A stretch of 61,153 nucleotides of DNA, counting the filler, from Hausera hauseri (lineage: Eukaryota), in NCBI GenBank assembly GCA_046269625.1. It is 10 parts of 10 records of this genome, joined end to end, with 100 filler letters (N's around TTAATTAATTAA, not from the genome) between each part and the next. Parts side by side here need not be neighbours in the genome. Positions count along the whole stretch, not along the records: positions 56,283 to 61,153 come from JBJURY010408477.1; 9 more parts are not named here. One strand, 5' to 3'. The position numbers and the translations under genes were made by a program. Under the pieces are notes generated by a model. The model was not told the origin of the DNA, did not search any database, and saw nothing but the letters and a program-made list of their open reading frames with translations. Every line of letters starts with the position of its first letter. Positions within the stretch are counted from its first letter, which is position 1. Positions 21,901 through 61,153 of the stretch are shown in pieces.

Positions 21901-24168
21901 ACTAAAGAACTGGATATAATTATCCAACCAACGAGTCATTCATTAGTTATTACAGTGCCTGACCTGAAGAACACAAACATAAAATTTGAGTGCCATCTCA
22001 ACCATAAAGTGATTAGTGAAGGAGTTCTAACTCCTGAAGAACCAACATCCGCATGCATGTTTCTAAAAGCCGACACAAACTATAAAGTCATCATAATAGA
22101 ATTAGATGATGAAGGAGAAAAGTTAAGAACGGTTTTTCGTACAGAAAAGACTTTAAAACAAACAATAACCACCCCAAAAATTATACGAAGAGTGACGGTG
22201 CAGGAGCCAGAACAAACTTCTAATAAAAACCTTTGGATAATTAGTGTATTATGTGTCTTCTTAATATTACTAGCTATACTTCTACCTTTAGCAATTTACC
22301 GTTCAAAAATGAAGCAACGACGGCGTAAAATTAGGGAAATGTTAAATCAGTTAAAAATGTTAAGGAAAGACTCCCAAGAATCGTTAGTAGACATAAGTGC
22401 GCTTTTTTCACAAAAACAACGGCAAGTTGAAGAACTTACCGATCTGGAGCGGCAAATTCAACCGCTTAAAAGTAGGCAAGCCGAAAAGCTTGCCGACCAA
22501 AAGCGGCTAGTACAACCGCTAAAATATGAACAAACTGAGGAATTTCCAAATGAAGAGTGGCAATCCCGACCGCTTAAAACTATAACCATGTATTTATGCA
22601 CAAAAATTCAGGACCAGGCCGCAAGATTTTTAGCGACCTATATTTATAGACAGTCAAAATACAAAGATATTATTATATGTAGAAAATTTTGGCCGCTGTT
22701 GATATTAATTTTTTTAGTCGGCGAAGGATCCGAACAGGCCCAGCGACCGAACAGTTTTTACCACAATATTGTTGCCAATCTACTGGCGTCCAGCAAAAAT
22801 TATGTTTACTATAAACAAGCCCATATGATACCGAATCATCTAAAAGGACACACTATAAATCAAAGAAGTGGCCTTATAATCAAGTTACAAACACATTCTA
22901 CTAAATTATCCGATTTGATCGATCTTACAAGTAAAGCCATGGCCATTTACATTTCAGTATCGAAAGGAACAATTCAATTAAAAAGCAAAGTTCTCCCTAA
23001 CGGAATCACAGATATAATTAACATTCCATCCCCAACCACGATTAGATTGGACGACAAATTCTTCAAAAATGTAGAAATAACTATCAGAATCATGAATGAA
23101 ATTCATCCAATCTTATATATCGAAGTTATCAAACAAGAAAATATCTTCCATAATGAATTAAAACAATTCAATTACCCAATACCAATTCCTAATGACTCTT
23201 TATTAGAAAAAGGTGTATCATTCGCAAGATCAACTCAAATACGGAAAGAAGATATAGTAATTGTGACTACTAACTCTGCGTATGTCATGCAACCAGTCCG
23301 CAAGATGGAAGTAACACTGATAGAAGTAACCATTATGGATTTAGATGGTAAAATCGTTTTCGATAAAATATTATGTCCACGTGACAGAATAGATAATTAC
23401 AATAGTCACGTAACCGGCCTAAGAGAACCGGACATAATAGGACAAATAGATCTCTTACAAACTTATCCTTTGATCAAAACTCATCTTACTGGAAAAATTA
23501 TCGTTGGAATGAATGTATTTTATACTCTTAATTACATTCTTAGATGTAGTCATCATTTGGTCTTGGGTATACGAGATTTACTCTATCATGAGAAGGCCAA
23601 TCCGAAACAAGAATTTAATCCTAAATATATCTTAACTGCATTCAATAATGGCGTCTATCCTCAAAGAACAAAAGCCAAAGCGAAATCAATGTTGGACATA
23701 TATAATTCAATTCCAGAATATAAAAATGAAAACTTAATGGACAAACTATCCCCAACAGATATCCACATAACCGATATTGAAACTAAAGAAAATCCAGAGA
23801 AAACAAGAGATTCTGCAAGTAACAAACTCTCCCAGGCGTCCTCAATAGAAAATAACGAAGTAAAGGAAATAGTATTATCGTTAACGAAGGAACCTAAGAA
23901 ATTGAAACAGAAACAATCTGATCTGATGGATTTATCAACTCAAATTATGATCGATTTAACAAAAAATACCAGAAAGTCAATCTCGTCTAAAGAAACAATC
24001 ACCCTAAAACGGAAGATTAAAGAAGAAGACCAATGGTTAGAAATAGATGCAGTACGATACCGACGTCCCGATGGAACCTACAAAATTTACCCTCTGAAGC
24101 CGAGGACGGCTTCATCTAAGGAGGGAGGTGTCGAACATGTGAACCCAACAAGTGGACTAAACATGTAA
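21901..24168 (+). CDS. 3'-terminal ORF of an LTR element, 5'-truncated: FN3-like domain, TM helix, coiled coil, second hydrophobic segment, degenerate DEDDh (REXO4/ISG20-like) exonuclease domain
   Basis: The frame is open from the contig start. TSHSLVITV...LKADTNYKVII; TM LWIISVLCVFLILLAILLPLAIY followed by RSKMKQRRRK; VTIMDLDGKIVFDKILCP..IDNYNSHVTGL..LTGKIIVG..IRDL. The ORF runs through the PPT into the LTR. Confidence 0.75.
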   Translation, partial: TKELDIIIQPTSHSLVITVPDLKNTNIKFECHLNHKVISEGVLTPEEPTSACMFLKADTNYKVIIIELDDEGEKLRTVFRTEKTLKQTITTPKIIRRVTVQEPEQTSNKNLWIISVLCVFLILLAILLPLAIYRSKMKQRRRKIREMLNQLKMLRKDSQESLVDISALFSQKQRQVEELTDLERQIQPLKSRQAEKLADQKRLVQPLKYEQTEEFPNEEWQSRPLKTITMYLCTKIQDQAARFLATYIYRQSKYKDIIICRKFWPLLILIFLVGEGSEQAQRPNSFYHNIVANLLASSKNYVYYKQAHMIPNHLKGHTINQRSGLIIKLQTHSTKLSDLIDLTSKAMAIYISVSKGTIQLKSKVLPNGITDIINIPSPTTIRLDDKFFKNVEITIRIMNEIHPILYIEVIKQENIFHNELKQFNYPIPIPNDSLLEKGVSFARSTQIRKEDIVIVTTNSAYVMQPVRKMEVTLIEVTIMDLDGKIVFDKILCPRDRIDNYNSHVTGLREPDIIGQIDLLQTYPLIKTHLTGKIIVGMNVFYTLNYILRCSHHLVLGIRDLLYHEKANPKQEFNPKYILTAFNNGVYPQRTKAKAKSMLDIYNSIPEYKNENLMDKLSPTDIHITDIETKENPEKTRDSASNKLSQASSIENNEVKEIVLSLTKEPKKLKQKQSDLMDLSTQIMIDLTKNTRKSISSKETITLKRKIKEEDQWLEIDAVRYRRPDGTYKIYPLKPRTASSKEGGVEHVNPTSGLNM

Positions 24169-25415: not shown

Positions 25416-25826
25416 TCAACCTCTGCCGCTGACCTCTACGTAGGCGTCTTGAACTTTGACACTTATTTCTTCCTTAAACGATTTAAATCTTTCGACATAT
25501 TCTTGTAATTCTCCGGCACAACTTTTCAATTTTTCAATTTTCACCTCTGCAGAAAGTTCTGCAGATAATTTTATTTCTTCTACTTTCAACAAGATTGTTT
25601 CGATTCCCTTCAAAATGCCTTTTAACTTTAAGCTAACTTCATTACAATCAATTCGTCGAAGAAGTAAAGCTTTGACTTTGACCTCGACATCTGCATTGAT
25701 CTCCAAATTCAAAAGGTCTTTCACTAAGCTAAACTTAACATCAAGGTTAGCGCTACCACCTATTCCGGATCCCGACACGCCAAATGAATAAATTATTGGT
25801 ATCAATAAGATTGAAAGAAAAATCAT
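25416..25826 (-). CDS. Small putative secreted helical protein (136 aa), function unknown
   Basis: N-terminal hydrophobic signal MIFLSILLIPIIYSFG, an amphipathic L/I/V/K/E pattern, 2 Cys, and TATAAA ~35-40 nt upstream. It is more GC-rich than its flanks. Confidence 0.6.
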   Translation of the reverse strand: MIFLSILLIPIIYSFGVSGSGIGGSANLDVKFSLVKDLLNLEINADVEVKVKALLLRRIDCNEVSLKLKGILKGIETILLKVEEIKLSAELSAEVKIEKLKSCAGELQEYVERFKSFKEEISVKVQDAYVEVSGRG

Positions 25827-27712
25827 TTCAAATGATTAAAATGACACGAAACGCTTTTTAATTTATACCATTGCCACATTCAAAAGTTGTTTCAACACTT
25901 CATTTTGAAGTTAAACCTTATTTCACGTGCGCAACAATCGATAATATTTGTTTGACAATTTCAAACATTAAACAACATTAAAGTGGGACAAACAAGGAAA
26001 AACATAATAAATCTATAAGTTCTCTTTTGGAGACAACCTGTGGGCAGACTGATATTTCAATATCTTAAGCTTGCAGCACTCAGTTTAAGGGACCGTTTCA
26101 TACATAAGTATATTCAAAATCAGCAGTCATTGATGTTAAATGTTTTTAGGATGCTTTGGCATAAAATCAGTGATTTCTGCCTTGTGTTTGCTTCTATATT
26201 CAGACTTGATTAGTCTCACTGCAAATATACAAACACACTAGAACTGAGTTTTATCATAATCTTTAAGTAAAAACCCACCTTTTGTTTTAAGATAAATGTA
26301 AAATATTTACAATAACAAGATGAAATATATTGTTTAAAACAATATATTGTTCAAAACAGAATTAACATAATCANNNNNNNNNNNNNNNNNNNNNNNNNNN
26401 NNNNNNNNNNNNNNNNNTTAATTAATTAANNNNNNNNNNNNNNNNNNNNNNNNNNNNNNNNNNNNNNNNNNNNGCTCTACTCCCATTGGTCACTTTTCCT
26501 TCCCTCGATGACGTGTTTCCTCCGATTGGCTTCCTTCTTTCCCTGGGGGGGTTGGTGCCAAGTCCTCACTTCCATCTACTTACATTTTTTTGTGATTTCA
26601 ATTTTGCAATTCAGACAAATTATCATAACAATGTGAATATTTGTGTATAAGTAATAAATTCTTGCACATATCTGTCTTCTTGTTTTTGATTATGTTAAGC
26701 AAAGTAACCTATTAACTAAAATAATAATTAAATAATTAATATTCAAAAAAATTATTTTGTCTCCTCACTCATCAGACTTGCACCCCAGAATATTAGAATT
26801 ATTGGCCCTCCATTCACCAGATTTTCATCACAAGCACCCTAAAGAGAATAAATTATCGTATTACAAGTACCTTATTTAATATGAACTAAAATACAAATCA
26901 CTTAATTTAACTGATGACTAACCAGTCATAGAATTTGGGAATCTCAAATTCATAAATTCCGCAACTGCATTTTTACAAAATGCCAGTCATCGAAAATTAC
27001 TGGCATTTCGATCAAAAACCAAGTACCCCGATTTGGAGAAAAACTCGAAATCGCACACGGTTCGCACAACCCGTGTCACACTTTGCATGAATCAGAATCC
27101 CCATACAATCCGTGACATTTTCCAAATCCAAACCCATAATTCCCATAAGGACAGAAAATCTTCACGAATTGCCAATCAATAAGTATGAGTCAAAGCACGC
27201 GGTAGATTCTAAAAAATGTAAATGTAAATGCACAATTTTTTTAAATCCATCATGACTCAGAAAAAGGCGTCCAGAATTTTGAAAATTACAAAAGCCAATA
27301 CACTACTCGGGCAATGAGTTTTAAAAAAATCCAATTCTAAAATCACAATTCCCAGCCCCACGTACTTTCTATAACAAAGGCTGTTCTCCTAATTCAGTTT
27401 CACCAGATATTTACTAATAATAAAACTTTCTGACATGTTAATTCCAGATTTTATTACAATTTATACCATTTCCATATCTCAGTCAGATGTAAAAATATAA
27501 ATTATTACATGCCAACTGTGGTGCCCACCGCGGCTGGTGCCCTCTNNNNNNNNNNCCAGAACAGCAAATTCAGACGGAACTTAAAAAATTCAGTCAAACT
27601 CAACCGATGATTATGAACACTGAACAATATTTATTAGTGGTCCTAAAACATTAACAATAAAACCAATAATTTTGTTATCCGAAATATCACTGCAATCTGA
27701 ACCGACTATGAC

Positions 27713-56282: not shown

Positions 56283-59200
56283 ATACTTGCAACCTCAATA
56301 CAGCTTCGTCCATTTTTAAATCCGATCGACCTCGCGGATAATTGGGTAATTATTATTTCGTCCAGTAATGTTTCATTCATTTCATGTCTGGTGGGAATTC
56401 GTATGGTTCGTACTAATTTAGTATATTTACTTCGATAGTAATCTCCTTTTTTCTTTATAATCGTAAGGTATACATTATGGAGGCCTGAATCTTGCACTAC
56501 ACATTGCGTTTCATTGATCCATGGATGGATTAAACAATCATAGTTTCGTTTATTAGGGTTTCTGTCATTATCGTCCCATGGTATCAATTGTATTCCTATT
56601 AGATATTCTGGAGTCATTCGTCTTGACACGCTCCAAATCACACATTTTTCACCTTTCCTTGTATACGTTACTTTATGTCGTAAGCTCTTTAGCAATAAAT
56701 CTTCATTTATGGCCACAGCGTGGCGTATTTTGGCGTGCTCGATTTCTTGTTTTGTCAATTGGCTTAAAACTGTGGGCATTAATATGAGGAATATCAACAC
56801 GATATATTTCTTTATTCCATGGAGTTTATAAGGGATTTGTGTTTCGTCTACTTTTTCGCTGATACACCGAACTATCTCTTGTTCTTCTTTTCTTAACTTA
56901 CTCTCTTTAGCTGCTGGTTTGCATCTATTAACATGGACTTTAAGGGAGACATTATTTTTCTTTAAACAGATATTAGGTAAATCTACTTTTTCAACTTCAT
57001 ATGGCCCTTTATATGGCCTATCTAGTTTTGATGTCTTTCCTCTCTTATTTAGTGGCGTATACAGCATCATCTTATCGCCTACTTTGATTTTTGGCTGTTT
57101 TGTTTTTTCATCATAATATTTCTTATATTTCATCTTATAGTCCTTTTGATTTCCTTCTATTATCTTATACGCTAACTGGAGTCGTTCTTGCATTAATTGT
57201 TTGTATTCTTCTATCTCCATCAAATGAGAAGTAGGTCTCACGTTAAAATCTAGGTCAATGGGTAATCTTGCGTCTCTAAGGTACATCAAGTAAAATGGCG
57301 TTTCTTTGGTGGCTTCATGAACAGACGTTCGGTTTACAAAAACACATGCGTTGATATATTCATCCCAATCATCTTGTCTGATATTTACTACCGTTTGTAG
57401 TTTTCCTTTCAAATCACCGATATATCTTTCAACCATTCCGTTATTTTCTGGATGTCCAGGCGTGGATCGCAGTTTTAGTATTTTCATAATATCATATATG
57501 GCCTGCATTACATTTCCGGTTAAGTTGGATGCTTGATCGGTTAAGAGAATTCGAGGAGCTCCATAGTTAAACACTATATTTTCTACGAATCTTTCAGCAA
57601 TTGTTTCTGCTTTCATGTCCGCCATGGGTAAGGCAACCACCCAGCGAGTAAAATAATCTATAAAAACTAAGATGTATCTATTCCCGTTCCTAGTTAGTGG
57701 TAAAGGACCAGTGATATCCATGGCTGTAAATTCAAATGGTGCAGGTGGATTATCCCACACTTTAAGGGGAGCTTTGAATTTTGATCCTGTATTTTTCCTA
57801 GTGGCGCATAGTTTACAACTTTCGCACCATTCCTGCACGTCCTTTATCATGGTAGGCCAAAAATATTTCCGTTTTAATTTATTTATCGTCTTTTTCGCTG
57901 ACTGATGTCCGCCTAGTAATCCATCATGGTATTGTGTTAATAGAACTGACCTATTTTTCCGTGGAATTACTAATGATGGTCCATTTTGATGAATATAATA
58001 TAAGAATCCATCTTTTTCTTCGTATGCCTCGCTAAATCGGGCTAGATGTCTAGCCAATTCTTTGTTCGTTGGCAATAGTTTGTTTTGTATATAATTTCTG
58101 ATCGCTTTTATATCAGGATCTTCTTGTTGATTCTGTTTAATCTTTTCTATTGATCCATCCATACTCCAGACTGCTGCTATCACTTCTTTCTTTGTTTTTG
58201 ATTCATCTGTCATTCTTGACAAATAATCTGCATTCGCGTTTCGTGTTCCCGGCTTATACTGGAAGTTTAATGTATAGGGCTGTAATTTAAGAGCCCATCG
58301 TAGTAATCGACTATTTGGATTCTCGTGTTGTTTTAGCCATTGTAGTGGTCGATGATCAGTGTATATTAGTAGTGGCTTATTTTCACTGATGTAAGGTGAA
58401 AAAACTTCTAGGGCAAATATTACTGCCAGCAATTCCTTTTCGATTACTGCGTATTTCTTTTGGTGTTTGTTAAGCTTTCTTGAAGCATAAGCCACTGGAT
58501 GCTCCTTGCCATCTTCACCTTTTTGTGACAATACTGCTCCAACTCCGTAGTCACTTGCATCCGTTGCTAGTATGAATGGTTTAGTAGTATCTGGGTATAT
58601 TAAGATTGGGGCGGTTAACAATCTATCCTTTAAGTGTTCGAAGGCTTTTTGGCAATCGTTTGTCCAAAATACTTTTTCCAAATCTTCTCGTAACAATTCG
58701 TATAAGGGCTTGGCTATTTTGCTAAAATCCTTTATAAACCTTCGGTAATAATTGGCCAGTCCTAAGAATCGACGTAATTCTTTGACCGTAGTTGGTTTCG
58801 GGAAGTCTTTGATCTTTCCCAGTAACTTATCTTGAGGCCTTACTCCATGTCTATCAACTCGATGTCCGAGGAAATCCACTTCTGCCTGGGCAAATGAACA
58901 TTTCTTTGGGTTTATCTTCAATCCCATTATTTCACATCTGTCAAAGAGATCTTGTAAGTCTTTCAAATGTTGTTGAAAATTCGATGATGCTATTATCACG
59001 TCATCGATGTATACCAGAGCATGGGGTGCATCCAAGAGTAACAGTTCGGTTCCTCTTTGAAACGTGGGTGGACCATTCTTCAATCCAAATGGCATCCTAT
59101 TAAATTCCCATAGTCCTTCGCCTATTGAGAAGGCTGTTTTCGGTTTATCCTCCTCTTTTACTTCTACTTGCCAGTATCCTTTTTGTAAGTCGATAGTCGT

Positions 59201-61153
59201 AAATATAGTTGATCCATGTAATTTATCTAATATTTCGTCAATTCTGGGTAATGGATACGTGTCTGTTTCCGTTATTTCGTTCAATGCTCTGTAGTCTATA
59301 CAAAATCTCATAGATCCATCTTTTTTCTTAACCATTACTACTGGTGCTGTCCATGGTGAGCAACTTGGTCTAATTATTTTATTTTCTCTCATTTCTTGTA
59401 TTATCTTTCGAGCTTCTTGCTTCTTGTCATAAGCTAATCGATACGGTCTTTTCTTTATGGGTCTATCCTGTCCTTCTTTTAATTTAATACTATGTTGTAT
59501 TATTTTCATTGTTCCTAAATCGTAATCATTCTGCGCAAAGCGATTATTATTTTTCTCCAACAGCTGGATTAACATTTGTTTTTCTTCTTTGGTTATGATG
59601 TCACATTTTTGTAATTTTTCTGCCCAGTTGATCTTAATGGCTTTCTTTTCTTCTTTATTTTTATTTACCTTTTTCTTCAGCTTTTTCATCATCATCTCCT
59701 CGATTTTATCCACATCTGAAGTTACCAAATTAATTTCGTCTCTCACTATTTCTTCGACCTTTGTTGCTTTTCCCAGCCTAGTGTTCTTCCTCAATCTTTT
59801 CTCTTTAGTTCCTGTATTGCACATTCTCAGATAGACCTGTCCGTCCCTTACTCTGTCAACATGCGGTGCAACCAAAATTTCATATTTTTCCATTATTTGG
59901 GGGGTTGGTTCAAAGTAAATAGTTTTCATTAATACTTCTTTTTCCAATTTACCGGGTACTACTATTTCAGTACGTGGTGGTATTATAATATCCTCCATTA
60001 TTGCAACCATACTCTCATTTTGATCTTCGTTAAATACCTTAAGTTGTCCTGTTTTTACATCGAGGTATGTATTTTCTAATTGTTTTAATATGTCGCAACC
60101 AATTAACATCTCGTTGGTTAAGTTTTCCGCTATTCTTACGGTATGTTGTATCGTTTGATTGCAGATCTTAATTTTGGCATCCAAAACCATCTTGATCTCT
60201 TCTTCGGTACCAAATGCTCCGATATTTACTAGTGTTGTTTCCGGTTTCCGTAGTTTTCTCTTTAGTTCTCTTGGTAGTAAACTTTTTCCCATAATCGTAG
60301 TAGTCGATCCTGTGTCTATTAGGGCCGTCACTGGATATCCGTTTACTTCTATGTCTATCTCCGGTCTTGGGGTTGATTGTGATTCGTTTTCATCATTCAC
60401 TTTACATGTTGGTTCTCGGTTATATGGCGTCGGGTTTGCGCCATAATTTTGTCTCATCTGTTGCATTTGGTGTGTGGGGTATAATCCTATATGTTCCACA
60501 TAACGAGGAGCTGATGGATTTGCAAACATTGACTCGCTATAGATTTGTCCATGGTATTCATCTGCCGGGTCCAACTGGGGTATATCCGTTATTACTTTTC
60601 GATTATACCTTCTTTTTTGTGATTTTAACGAAAATCGCTTTAATCGGGTTATGTATCTATTATTCTTCGGCTTCGTATCTGTGTTATCGTCATTATAATC
60701 TCGACCGTTTAGTGTGCTATATGGTGAATTCCTTTCAATATCCTTACTTTTTTCCTTAAGTATCTTCTTTTTCCATTTCGCGTCCTGATTCGCTAAAAAA
60801 CAACTAGCTACCGCAGGGATTATTGCTATTAATATCTTCCATGAGCAGCCAACTGCTGCATGTATGCCATATGCCTTTCCAAGCGCTGTGAATATTGTTC
60901 GCAGAGCGCTTATAATAAAATATATAGCCAAGAATCCTGATGCTGCTTGACCGAAATATAAGAATTTTCCCCACATCTTTTCCATTACGTTCTTTGTAAC
61001 CTTTTTAAGGTAATCTCTTCCCATTAGGTTTTCCCATTGTGGTGAGCCTTCGCCATCCCACATCACTCTTCTTGTTAGCTCCGTTATTACTCTCTGTCTT
61101 TGTTGAGGAAACAACAACATCCGCCGATAATCTTCCAGGTTTTGTTGGGTATA
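56283..61153 (-). CDS. Uninterrupted polyprotein open at both contig ends: Env C-terminus/TM - PSAP linker - PR - RT - RNase H - IN - signal peptide - ectodomain (Ty3/Gypsy-type)
   Basis: The N-terminus aligns with the C2 glycoprotein (KMWGKFL.FGQAASGFLAIYF). Then ALIDTGS, RFCIDYRALN, MPFGLKN, VYIDD, TDASDYGVGAVL, HHCC, MDITGPLP, TDQ, NNGMVER, KGPY, and finally YIVLIFLILMPTVLS. Confidence 0.93.

Follow-up and report, generated by a model that had tools for sequence, protein, structure and literature searches.

A predicted fibronectin type III ectodomain behind a signal-peptide-like segment, in frame after the integrase of an Env-bearing Ty3/gypsy element from Hausera hauseri

Does an Env-bearing retroelement of Hausera hauseri encode a second exported protein behind its integrase, besides its fusogen? 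The question was raised by an initial annotation, in which the frame of an integrase seemed to continue into a signal peptide and a further surface protein. The DNA analysed is a stretch of 61,153 nucleotides, referred to as the window. It is composed of ten contigs with N spacers of 100 bases between them, and adjoining contigs are not physically linked. The contig of interest, C10, is 4.9 kb long and occupies positions 56283–61153. Its minus strand holds one frame from 61153 to 56285, which is 1623 aa long and open at both ends. The Pfam matches along this frame follow the order of the C-terminal part of Env, protease, RT, RNase H, integrase zinc finger and integrase core (Table 1). The Env is of the gB/chuvirus type and stands upstream of Pol, in frame with the protease. 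Two hydrophobic segments were found in its C-terminal part by hydropathy (60946–60791). The Pol shows the Ty3/gypsy (Metaviridae) order protease-RT-RNase H-integrase with intact motifs, and trees place it among Ty3/gypsy Pol sequences. C10 is a portion of a Ty3/gypsy element in which Env is fused ahead of Pol.

Table 1. Features of contigs C10 and C4, with positions counted along the window.
Feature	Positions	Strand	Basis
Monjiviricetes/gB-type Env, C-terminal part; upstream part cut off by contig end	60701..61153	-	PF24664 E 2.6e-21, profile 479-630, frame residues 1-151
Aspartic protease, in frame after Env tail	60074..60370	-	PF00077 E 2.4e-11
Reverse transcriptase	58856..59332	-	PF00078 E 3.4e-35
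RNase H	58274..58666	-	PF17917 E 6e-40, PF17919 E 3e-38
Integrase zinc finger and core	57449..57967	-	PF17921 E 7.8e-20, PF00665 E 1.2e-11
Integrase C-terminal GPY/F module	56918..57091	-	GPY motif in sequence; alignment with relatives
35-aa linker ending in Y-x-L motif	56813..56917	-	Y/F/H-x-L/M motif after integrase in 8/9 clade members
Internal signal-peptide-like segment KKYIVLIFLILMPTVLS	56762..56812	-	Basic n-region, 11-residue core, VLS/Q site; same feature in 8/8 relatives
Predicted fibronectin type III (FN3) domain, 3 Cys, one NET sequon	56387..56692	-	Trimmed 102-residue single-sequence model (56692-56387), pLDDT 66.3, pTM 0.61
Second NET sequon; a further beta domain likely begins here and is cut by contig end	56285..56386	-	Sequence; two strands in low-confidence full model
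C4: FN3-like domain, membrane segment, basic cluster	21901..22320	+	HMM, hhalign, hydropathy 3.13

The signal-peptide-like stretch noticed after the GPY/F module in the initial annotation was recovered at 56812–56762, two bases past the upper coordinate of 56810 given there. It is preceded by a linker, which is likely the site where the element's own protease would release the integrase. The signal peptide call is based on hydropathy, on the -3/-1 rule and on comparison with the relatives. The 11-residue hydropathy of the segment (2.86) is the highest of the whole C10 frame, and its 15-residue value (2.49) is exceeded in the frame only by an Env membrane segment. By rule, the segment has the basic n-region, the hydrophobic core and the small residues at -3 and -1 of a signal peptide. 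Three basic residues are located ahead of the core, a proline is located at -5, and VLS/Q is the single candidate -3/-1 site.

The segment is followed by 159 residues up to the contig end, with four Cys and two NET sequons (56515 and 56377). This agrees with the earlier description of a beta-rich, Cys-containing sequence of at least 155 aa carrying two NET sequons. SIGF, which had been given as its end, is not the end, as the frame continues 10 residues further to the contig end. Neither an anchor nor a stop is seen in this tail before the contig end. The FN3-like character suggested at first sight was examined by structure prediction. The full 160-residue model (pLDDT 41) gave nothing usable by Foldseek or by a wide structure search (best Z 4.1). 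With the trimmed model, fibronectin III modules and cytokine-receptor domains were the top Foldseek hits, with a probability of up to 1.0, TM values of 0.55–0.66 and E values of 0.03–0.09. Its realignment to fibronectin III modules, which re-examines the Foldseek hits and is not a wide search, gave a Z of 8.6 and an rmsd of 2.5–2.8 with 83–93 of the 102 residues aligned. The trimmed model thus bears out the FN3-like character. An Atlas match of the ectodomain as FN3 (0.84) serves as a lead only. Pfam fn3 did not match the ectodomain, zero families were reported at E up to 1, and the fold had no match in a viral structure library at E 0.001 or better. According to this one single-sequence model, the ectodomain of C10 likely adopts an FN3 fold. 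No homologue of it was present among 90 candidate proteins of 892–2841 aa, and no match was found in viral contigs (0/30). Two candidates from a metagenome scan, L001 and L002, were rejected as bacterial chance matches. These searches returned no homologue besides near-identical copies, and no resemblance to any particular host receptor was found.

Parts of C10 are present in 8 runs from 8 studies, with no RNA run among them, and four runs were compared in detail. The junction between integrase and ectodomain is bridged in three of these four, one of which may be the source of the studied DNA. A contig of X4 leads from the integrase end to the ectodomain (56636–57103) with 7 differences and no gaps, and contigs of X1 and X3 bridge the linker, the signal-like segment and the ectodomain start. 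One low-depth contig of X2 omits 112 bases of the ectodomain. Copies of about 85–88% identity (31 differences in 255 bases; 42 in 277) are gapless over the signal-like segment and the ectodomain start. The four indels listed in 56283–56900 are all in the linker, and their sum is 0 or -3, by which the frame is kept. The best-supported 40 of 114 differing places comprise 24 silent changes, 16 replacements and no stop. For the ectodomain, the 30 listed differences comprise 18 silent changes, 12 replacements and 0 stops, where a silent share of about 0.28 is expected (p 2e-4). The dN/dS is 0.26 for the ectodomain versus 0.07 for Env/Pol (27 silent of 32 listed), and these ratios are rough because each list is limited to the 40 places with the best support, out of 114 in one case and 845 in the other, and is no random sample. 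Four of the eight listed differences in the signal-like segment are silent, which is not significant, and both replacement changes in its hydrophobic core remain hydrophobic. No Cys of the ectodomain is affected by any listed change. GC and GC3 are the same in the ectodomain (0.365/0.31) and in Pol (0.365/0.33). The conservation among related copies, on which the initial annotation had made its reading depend, is evident in the excess of silent changes, the gapless alignment and the lack of stops. The post-integrase segment and the ectodomain are confirmed as real, conserved sequence with no assembly join.

Relatives were collected through polyprotein searches, which detect only fused frames. 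The 136 relatives consist of 16 proteins of greater length plus the best 120 among 417 that are near in length, and an integrase match was obtained in 136 of these relatives and the element on contig C1 taken together. A hydrophobic segment behind the integrase is present in ten of the 136, namely P0021, P0002, P0028, P0019, P0018, P0020, P0008, P0003 and two distant algal gene models. The first six named are the six best integrase matches. The 126 others mostly have just short tails after the integrase. C10 and the eight P-numbered relatives form one clade with a UFBoot of 100 in a 22-sequence RT-RH-IN tree. The support is 0.97 on RT-RH alone (38 sequences), and the same nine group at 0.60 in a 133-sequence tree, from which 5 of 138 were omitted for short matches. 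An in-frame signal-peptide-like segment with a -3/-1 site occurs in all eight clade relatives, versus any such segment in 2 of the 128 other integrase matches. The slot is conserved across relatives, as a property of this clade of nine elements. Since the nine are kin, it counts as one gain with repeated change of cargo.

The cargo is diverse. The ectodomains of the relatives are mutually unlike except for the pair P0002/P0018, which is Cys-rich. That of P0003 matches Ig (PF13927, E 1.5e-5, below the curated cut-off), and that of P0020 appears as tandem FN3 (Atlas 0.90). P0021, P0019 and P0028 are FN3-like by motif and partly by profile, and no fold was assigned for P0008. The density of sequons in the ectodomains exceeds that of the RT-IN region 3.7-fold (36 in 2196 residues versus 34 in 7730; p 9e-8). 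A second anchor with a tail follows in five of the eight relatives, and none was detected at the threshold used in the other three. The tails carry trafficking-type motifs, with PPxY in two of the five. Env is also carried by P0002, P0003, P0008 and P0018, and P0002 has the full Gag-Env-Pol order with Gag present. P0019 and P0020 have no Env match in the recorded frame, and the sequences of P0021 and P0028 begin inside Pol and are uninformative on Env. Outside the clade, the Gag-Env-Pol elements P0025 and P0131 end without a signal-like segment. Residues 45–240 of P0020 hold a signal-FN3-like-TM cassette directly ahead of the protease, which is the position of Env, in addition to two FN3-like domains after the integrase. 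Extra aspartic-protease-like copies are found after the integrase in P0002 and P0021 and ahead of the main protease in P0019, and P0021 has ankyrin repeats after the integrase.

Some further observations were made on these proteins. P0028 is labelled by its source as a Turicibacter MAG protein, yet it falls inside the retroelement clade and is likely eukaryotic DNA in a bacterial bin. In the Env tail of C10, a Y-P motif precedes the protease by a short distance (about 60490–60470, minus strand), and it recurs in P0002 and P0003; we take it to resemble an ALIX-type late domain. Two distant Ty3/gypsy polyproteins, P0013 and P0015, have extra domains between RNase H and integrase or near it, which are a deoxynucleoside kinase with a PHD finger, or a DNA methylase-like domain with a PHD finger.

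The ectodomain had also been compared with the FN3-TM region of contig C4. The proposed equivalence is confined to fold and slot, and no sequence kinship was detected. The first domain of C4 matched the FN3-like profile of the relatives in a leave-one-out HMM test (E 0.01, 11.1 bits; best decoy 3.9) and their FN3-like family by hhalign (E 0.0012, with 0 of 100 shuffles as high). The C10 ectodomain scored 1.5 bits against this profile, which is within the decoys, and 78 of 100 shuffles were as high. The family profile is weak, as P0019 and P0028 were also within the decoys in the leave-one-out test. The best BLASTP E value between the C10 ectodomain and C4 was 4.2, and C4 lacks Pol and does not match C10 at the DNA level. 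C4 is probably the corresponding tail of another element of the same kind, on a separate contig without Pol. Its frame (21901–24168, plus strand) has a second hydrophobic segment after the FN3 domain and the anchor. Residues 472–541 gave a weak ISG20/REX-type exonuclease match (E 0.053), in which the first acidic motif is seemingly missing by eye.

On the observed domain order, frame, conservation and clade-wide slot, a mechanism was built from standard ER topology. The polyprotein would be threaded through the ER. The Env anchor would place protease-RT-RNase H-integrase in the cytosol, and the second signal segment would restart translocation. This topology requires that just one of the two hydrophobic segments of Env cross the membrane. 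Signal peptidase would cut at VLS/Q and free an N-glycosylated FN3 protein, which would be anchored farther downstream, as in five relatives, and would have no covalent link to the particle. Until it is released by its own protease, Pol would be tied to the membrane at both ends, by the Env tail and by what is left of the signal segment. The idea that Pol is flanked by membrane segments, which had been put forward from the start, follows from the order of Env-TM, Pol and signal segment. The tie to the membrane would also account for the arrival of Pol in particles in the absence of direct fusion to Gag. Flavivirus-type polyproteins are cut at internal signal peptides, and the likeness of the C10 polyprotein to them is an analogy only, with no homology. 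The sequence supports the view that a second exported protein is made besides the fusogen. Considering that no anchor is visible in C10 and that none was detected in three of the eight relatives at the threshold used, the second protein may be secreted.

What the second protein does was judged against several explanations. We slightly favour the reading that a C10-type element yields a second, probably membrane-anchored FN3 glycoprotein, which acts on the host as an accessory and is no obligatory trigger of the fusogen. For the accessory, host-acting role taken by itself, the chance is roughly even. The most likely job would be the binding or mimicking of a host surface molecule, as a decoy or in adhesion. 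The accessory role is favoured because the protein would be freed from Env-Pol, because unrelated folds are swapped in the slot, and because the slot occurs without a visible Env (P0019, P0020) while other Env-bearing elements (P0025, P0131) lack it. The PPxY in two of the five tails, the signal-FN3-like-TM cassette ahead of the protease in P0020, and the sharing of the slot with ankyrin repeats and extra proteases also speak for it. A different role would be that of the attachment subunit in a two-part entry machine. The protein would then sit on the particle and bind the target cell, the gB-type Env would carry out fusion, and a swap of the ectodomain would change the target tissue. The model for this is found in herpesviruses, where gB works beside gD and gH/gL, which serve it; the likeness of a gB-type fusogen beside a surface protein of Ig/FN3 fold is again an analogy only, with no homology. 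FN3 and Ig are binding folds, one frame would give both proteins in equal amounts and in one membrane, and both are present in four of the eight relatives (P0002, P0003, P0008 and P0018). However, Mononegavirus-type G proteins function alone, and a triggering partner is expected to be hard to exchange among unrelated folds. Signal cleavage would also separate the protein from Env-Pol, P0025 and P0131 have Env but no such in-frame tail, and P0019 and P0020 have the tail but no Env match in the recorded frame. Both Pfam and the classification in the main text of eLife 108449 make the Env gB-like, which fits the attachment role, but on the whole we regard that role as rather unlikely. Its broader form, equally doubtful, is a lineage of retrotransposon-viruses with two-protein entry, in which a conserved gB-type fusogen and a receptor-binding protein open to free exchange (FN3, Ig or Cys-rich), derived from host-like surface proteins, would be cut from one membrane-threaded polyprotein and Pol would be packaged via the Env tail. 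If true, an LTR element would divide its labour in the manner of herpesviruses and would have a natural cassette by which target cells could be changed.

Two other explanations concern the origin of the protein rather than its role. A real protein could be translated chiefly from a message that is spliced or starts internally, like the ORF3/env of errantiviruses, with the fusion to Pol being incidental. Other LTR elements have ORF3 at the position of the slot, and the ORF3s captured by them are varied, with small TM proteins among them (text of PMC5408684). A Met is located at most 15 residues before the hydrophobic core in four of the nine clade members. But C10 and P0020 have no Met between the integrase end and the core, all nine members are in frame without a stop, and the linker indels keep the frame, which makes a separate message improbable. 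A chimeric assembly, or a dead copy to which a neutral fragment of a host receptor gene is attached, would be conceivable for a short contig of a repeat family whose ectodomain had no homologue in the searches. The bridging of the junction in three runs, the excess of silent changes, the GC and GC3 equal to those of Pol and the identical layout in eight relatives leave such an origin very little room.

Gag-Env-Pol elements as such are already known. The planarian Burro/GYPSM1 elements are giant Ty3/gypsy elements whose single polyprotein has a Mononegavirus-like Env in frame, with Gag on one side and Pol on the other (text of PMC6431247). They resemble C10 in the Env in frame ahead of Pol and in extra host-like domains, of which ankyrin repeats are also found in P0021. 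The cargo described in that text comprises MATH, BIR, BCL2, ubiquitin-like, dUTPase and ankyrin domains, and a post-integrase signal peptide or FN3/Ig ectodomain is not listed there. For the dUTPase-like domain, which Burro has between protease and RT, C10 had no Pfam match at E up to 1, and the HHpred used in the Burro paper is more sensitive. The full relatives in this study have 2700–3200 aa versus about 5000 for Burro. Errantiviruses whose Env is of the HSV/gB type and whose order is GAG-ENV-POL occur in Nematoda, Bryozoa and Platyhelminthes (main text of eLife 108449, PMC13524379; Sacco et al. 2022 as cited there), and share with C10 a Ty3/gypsy Pol with a gB-type Env ahead. In that main text, fibronectin, immunoglobulin, accessory, polyprotein and second glycoprotein are all unmentioned, and the chromodomain is the sole module noted after the integrase. 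In rotifer LTR elements, a variable slot behind pol holds TM proteins, Cys-rich TM proteins or DEDDy exonucleases (text of PMC5408684). The rotifer cargo consists of separate ORF3s replacing env, whereas that of C10 is in frame with Pol and additional to the Env ahead of Pol. In the literature covered, which is mostly open-access running text, a signal peptide with an FN3/Ig ectodomain behind the integrase was nowhere found described, and PMC8532177 contributed nothing further. Within that coverage, the second, post-integrase slot for a surface protein is apparently unreported.

Other contigs of the window also hold retroelements and genes. On C2 (10087–17085, plus strand), a second Gag-Env element was found, whose Gag has a CCHC knuckle. 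About 1000 residues without assignment follow the Gag and end in a ubiquitin-like stretch (by eye), after which a signal-like segment is present. Its Monjiviricetes Env is 38% identical to the C10 Env over 134 aa, and its frame has four stops (14245, 14713, 15442 and 16453). The layout is reminiscent of Burro. An intact Ty3/gypsy pol is located on C1 (3238–7101, minus strand), and a broken one on C3 (18430–21406, plus strand; by eye). LINE-like ORF1/ORF2 were seen by eye on C7 (43425–47300, plus strand). A ubiquitin hydrolase is located on C5 (28076–31657, plus strand) and POP1 on C9 (53627–55755, plus strand). A 139-aa frame with a signal-like start (25419–25835, minus strand) gave only a weak DUF7795 match (E 0.012).

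The mechanism of cell entry by envelope-bearing retrotransposons of invertebrates is elusive outside Drosophila, according to the main text of eLife 108449. Annotation surveys end at the integrase and would overlook the slot described here. The topology proposed for the polyprotein predicts that Pol would be packaged without direct fusion of Gag and Pol, and the small soluble ectodomain would be a testable object. With a second exported protein retained behind the integrase in every member while the outer domain changes, the clade offers a concrete candidate for the choice of target or for the modulation of the host.
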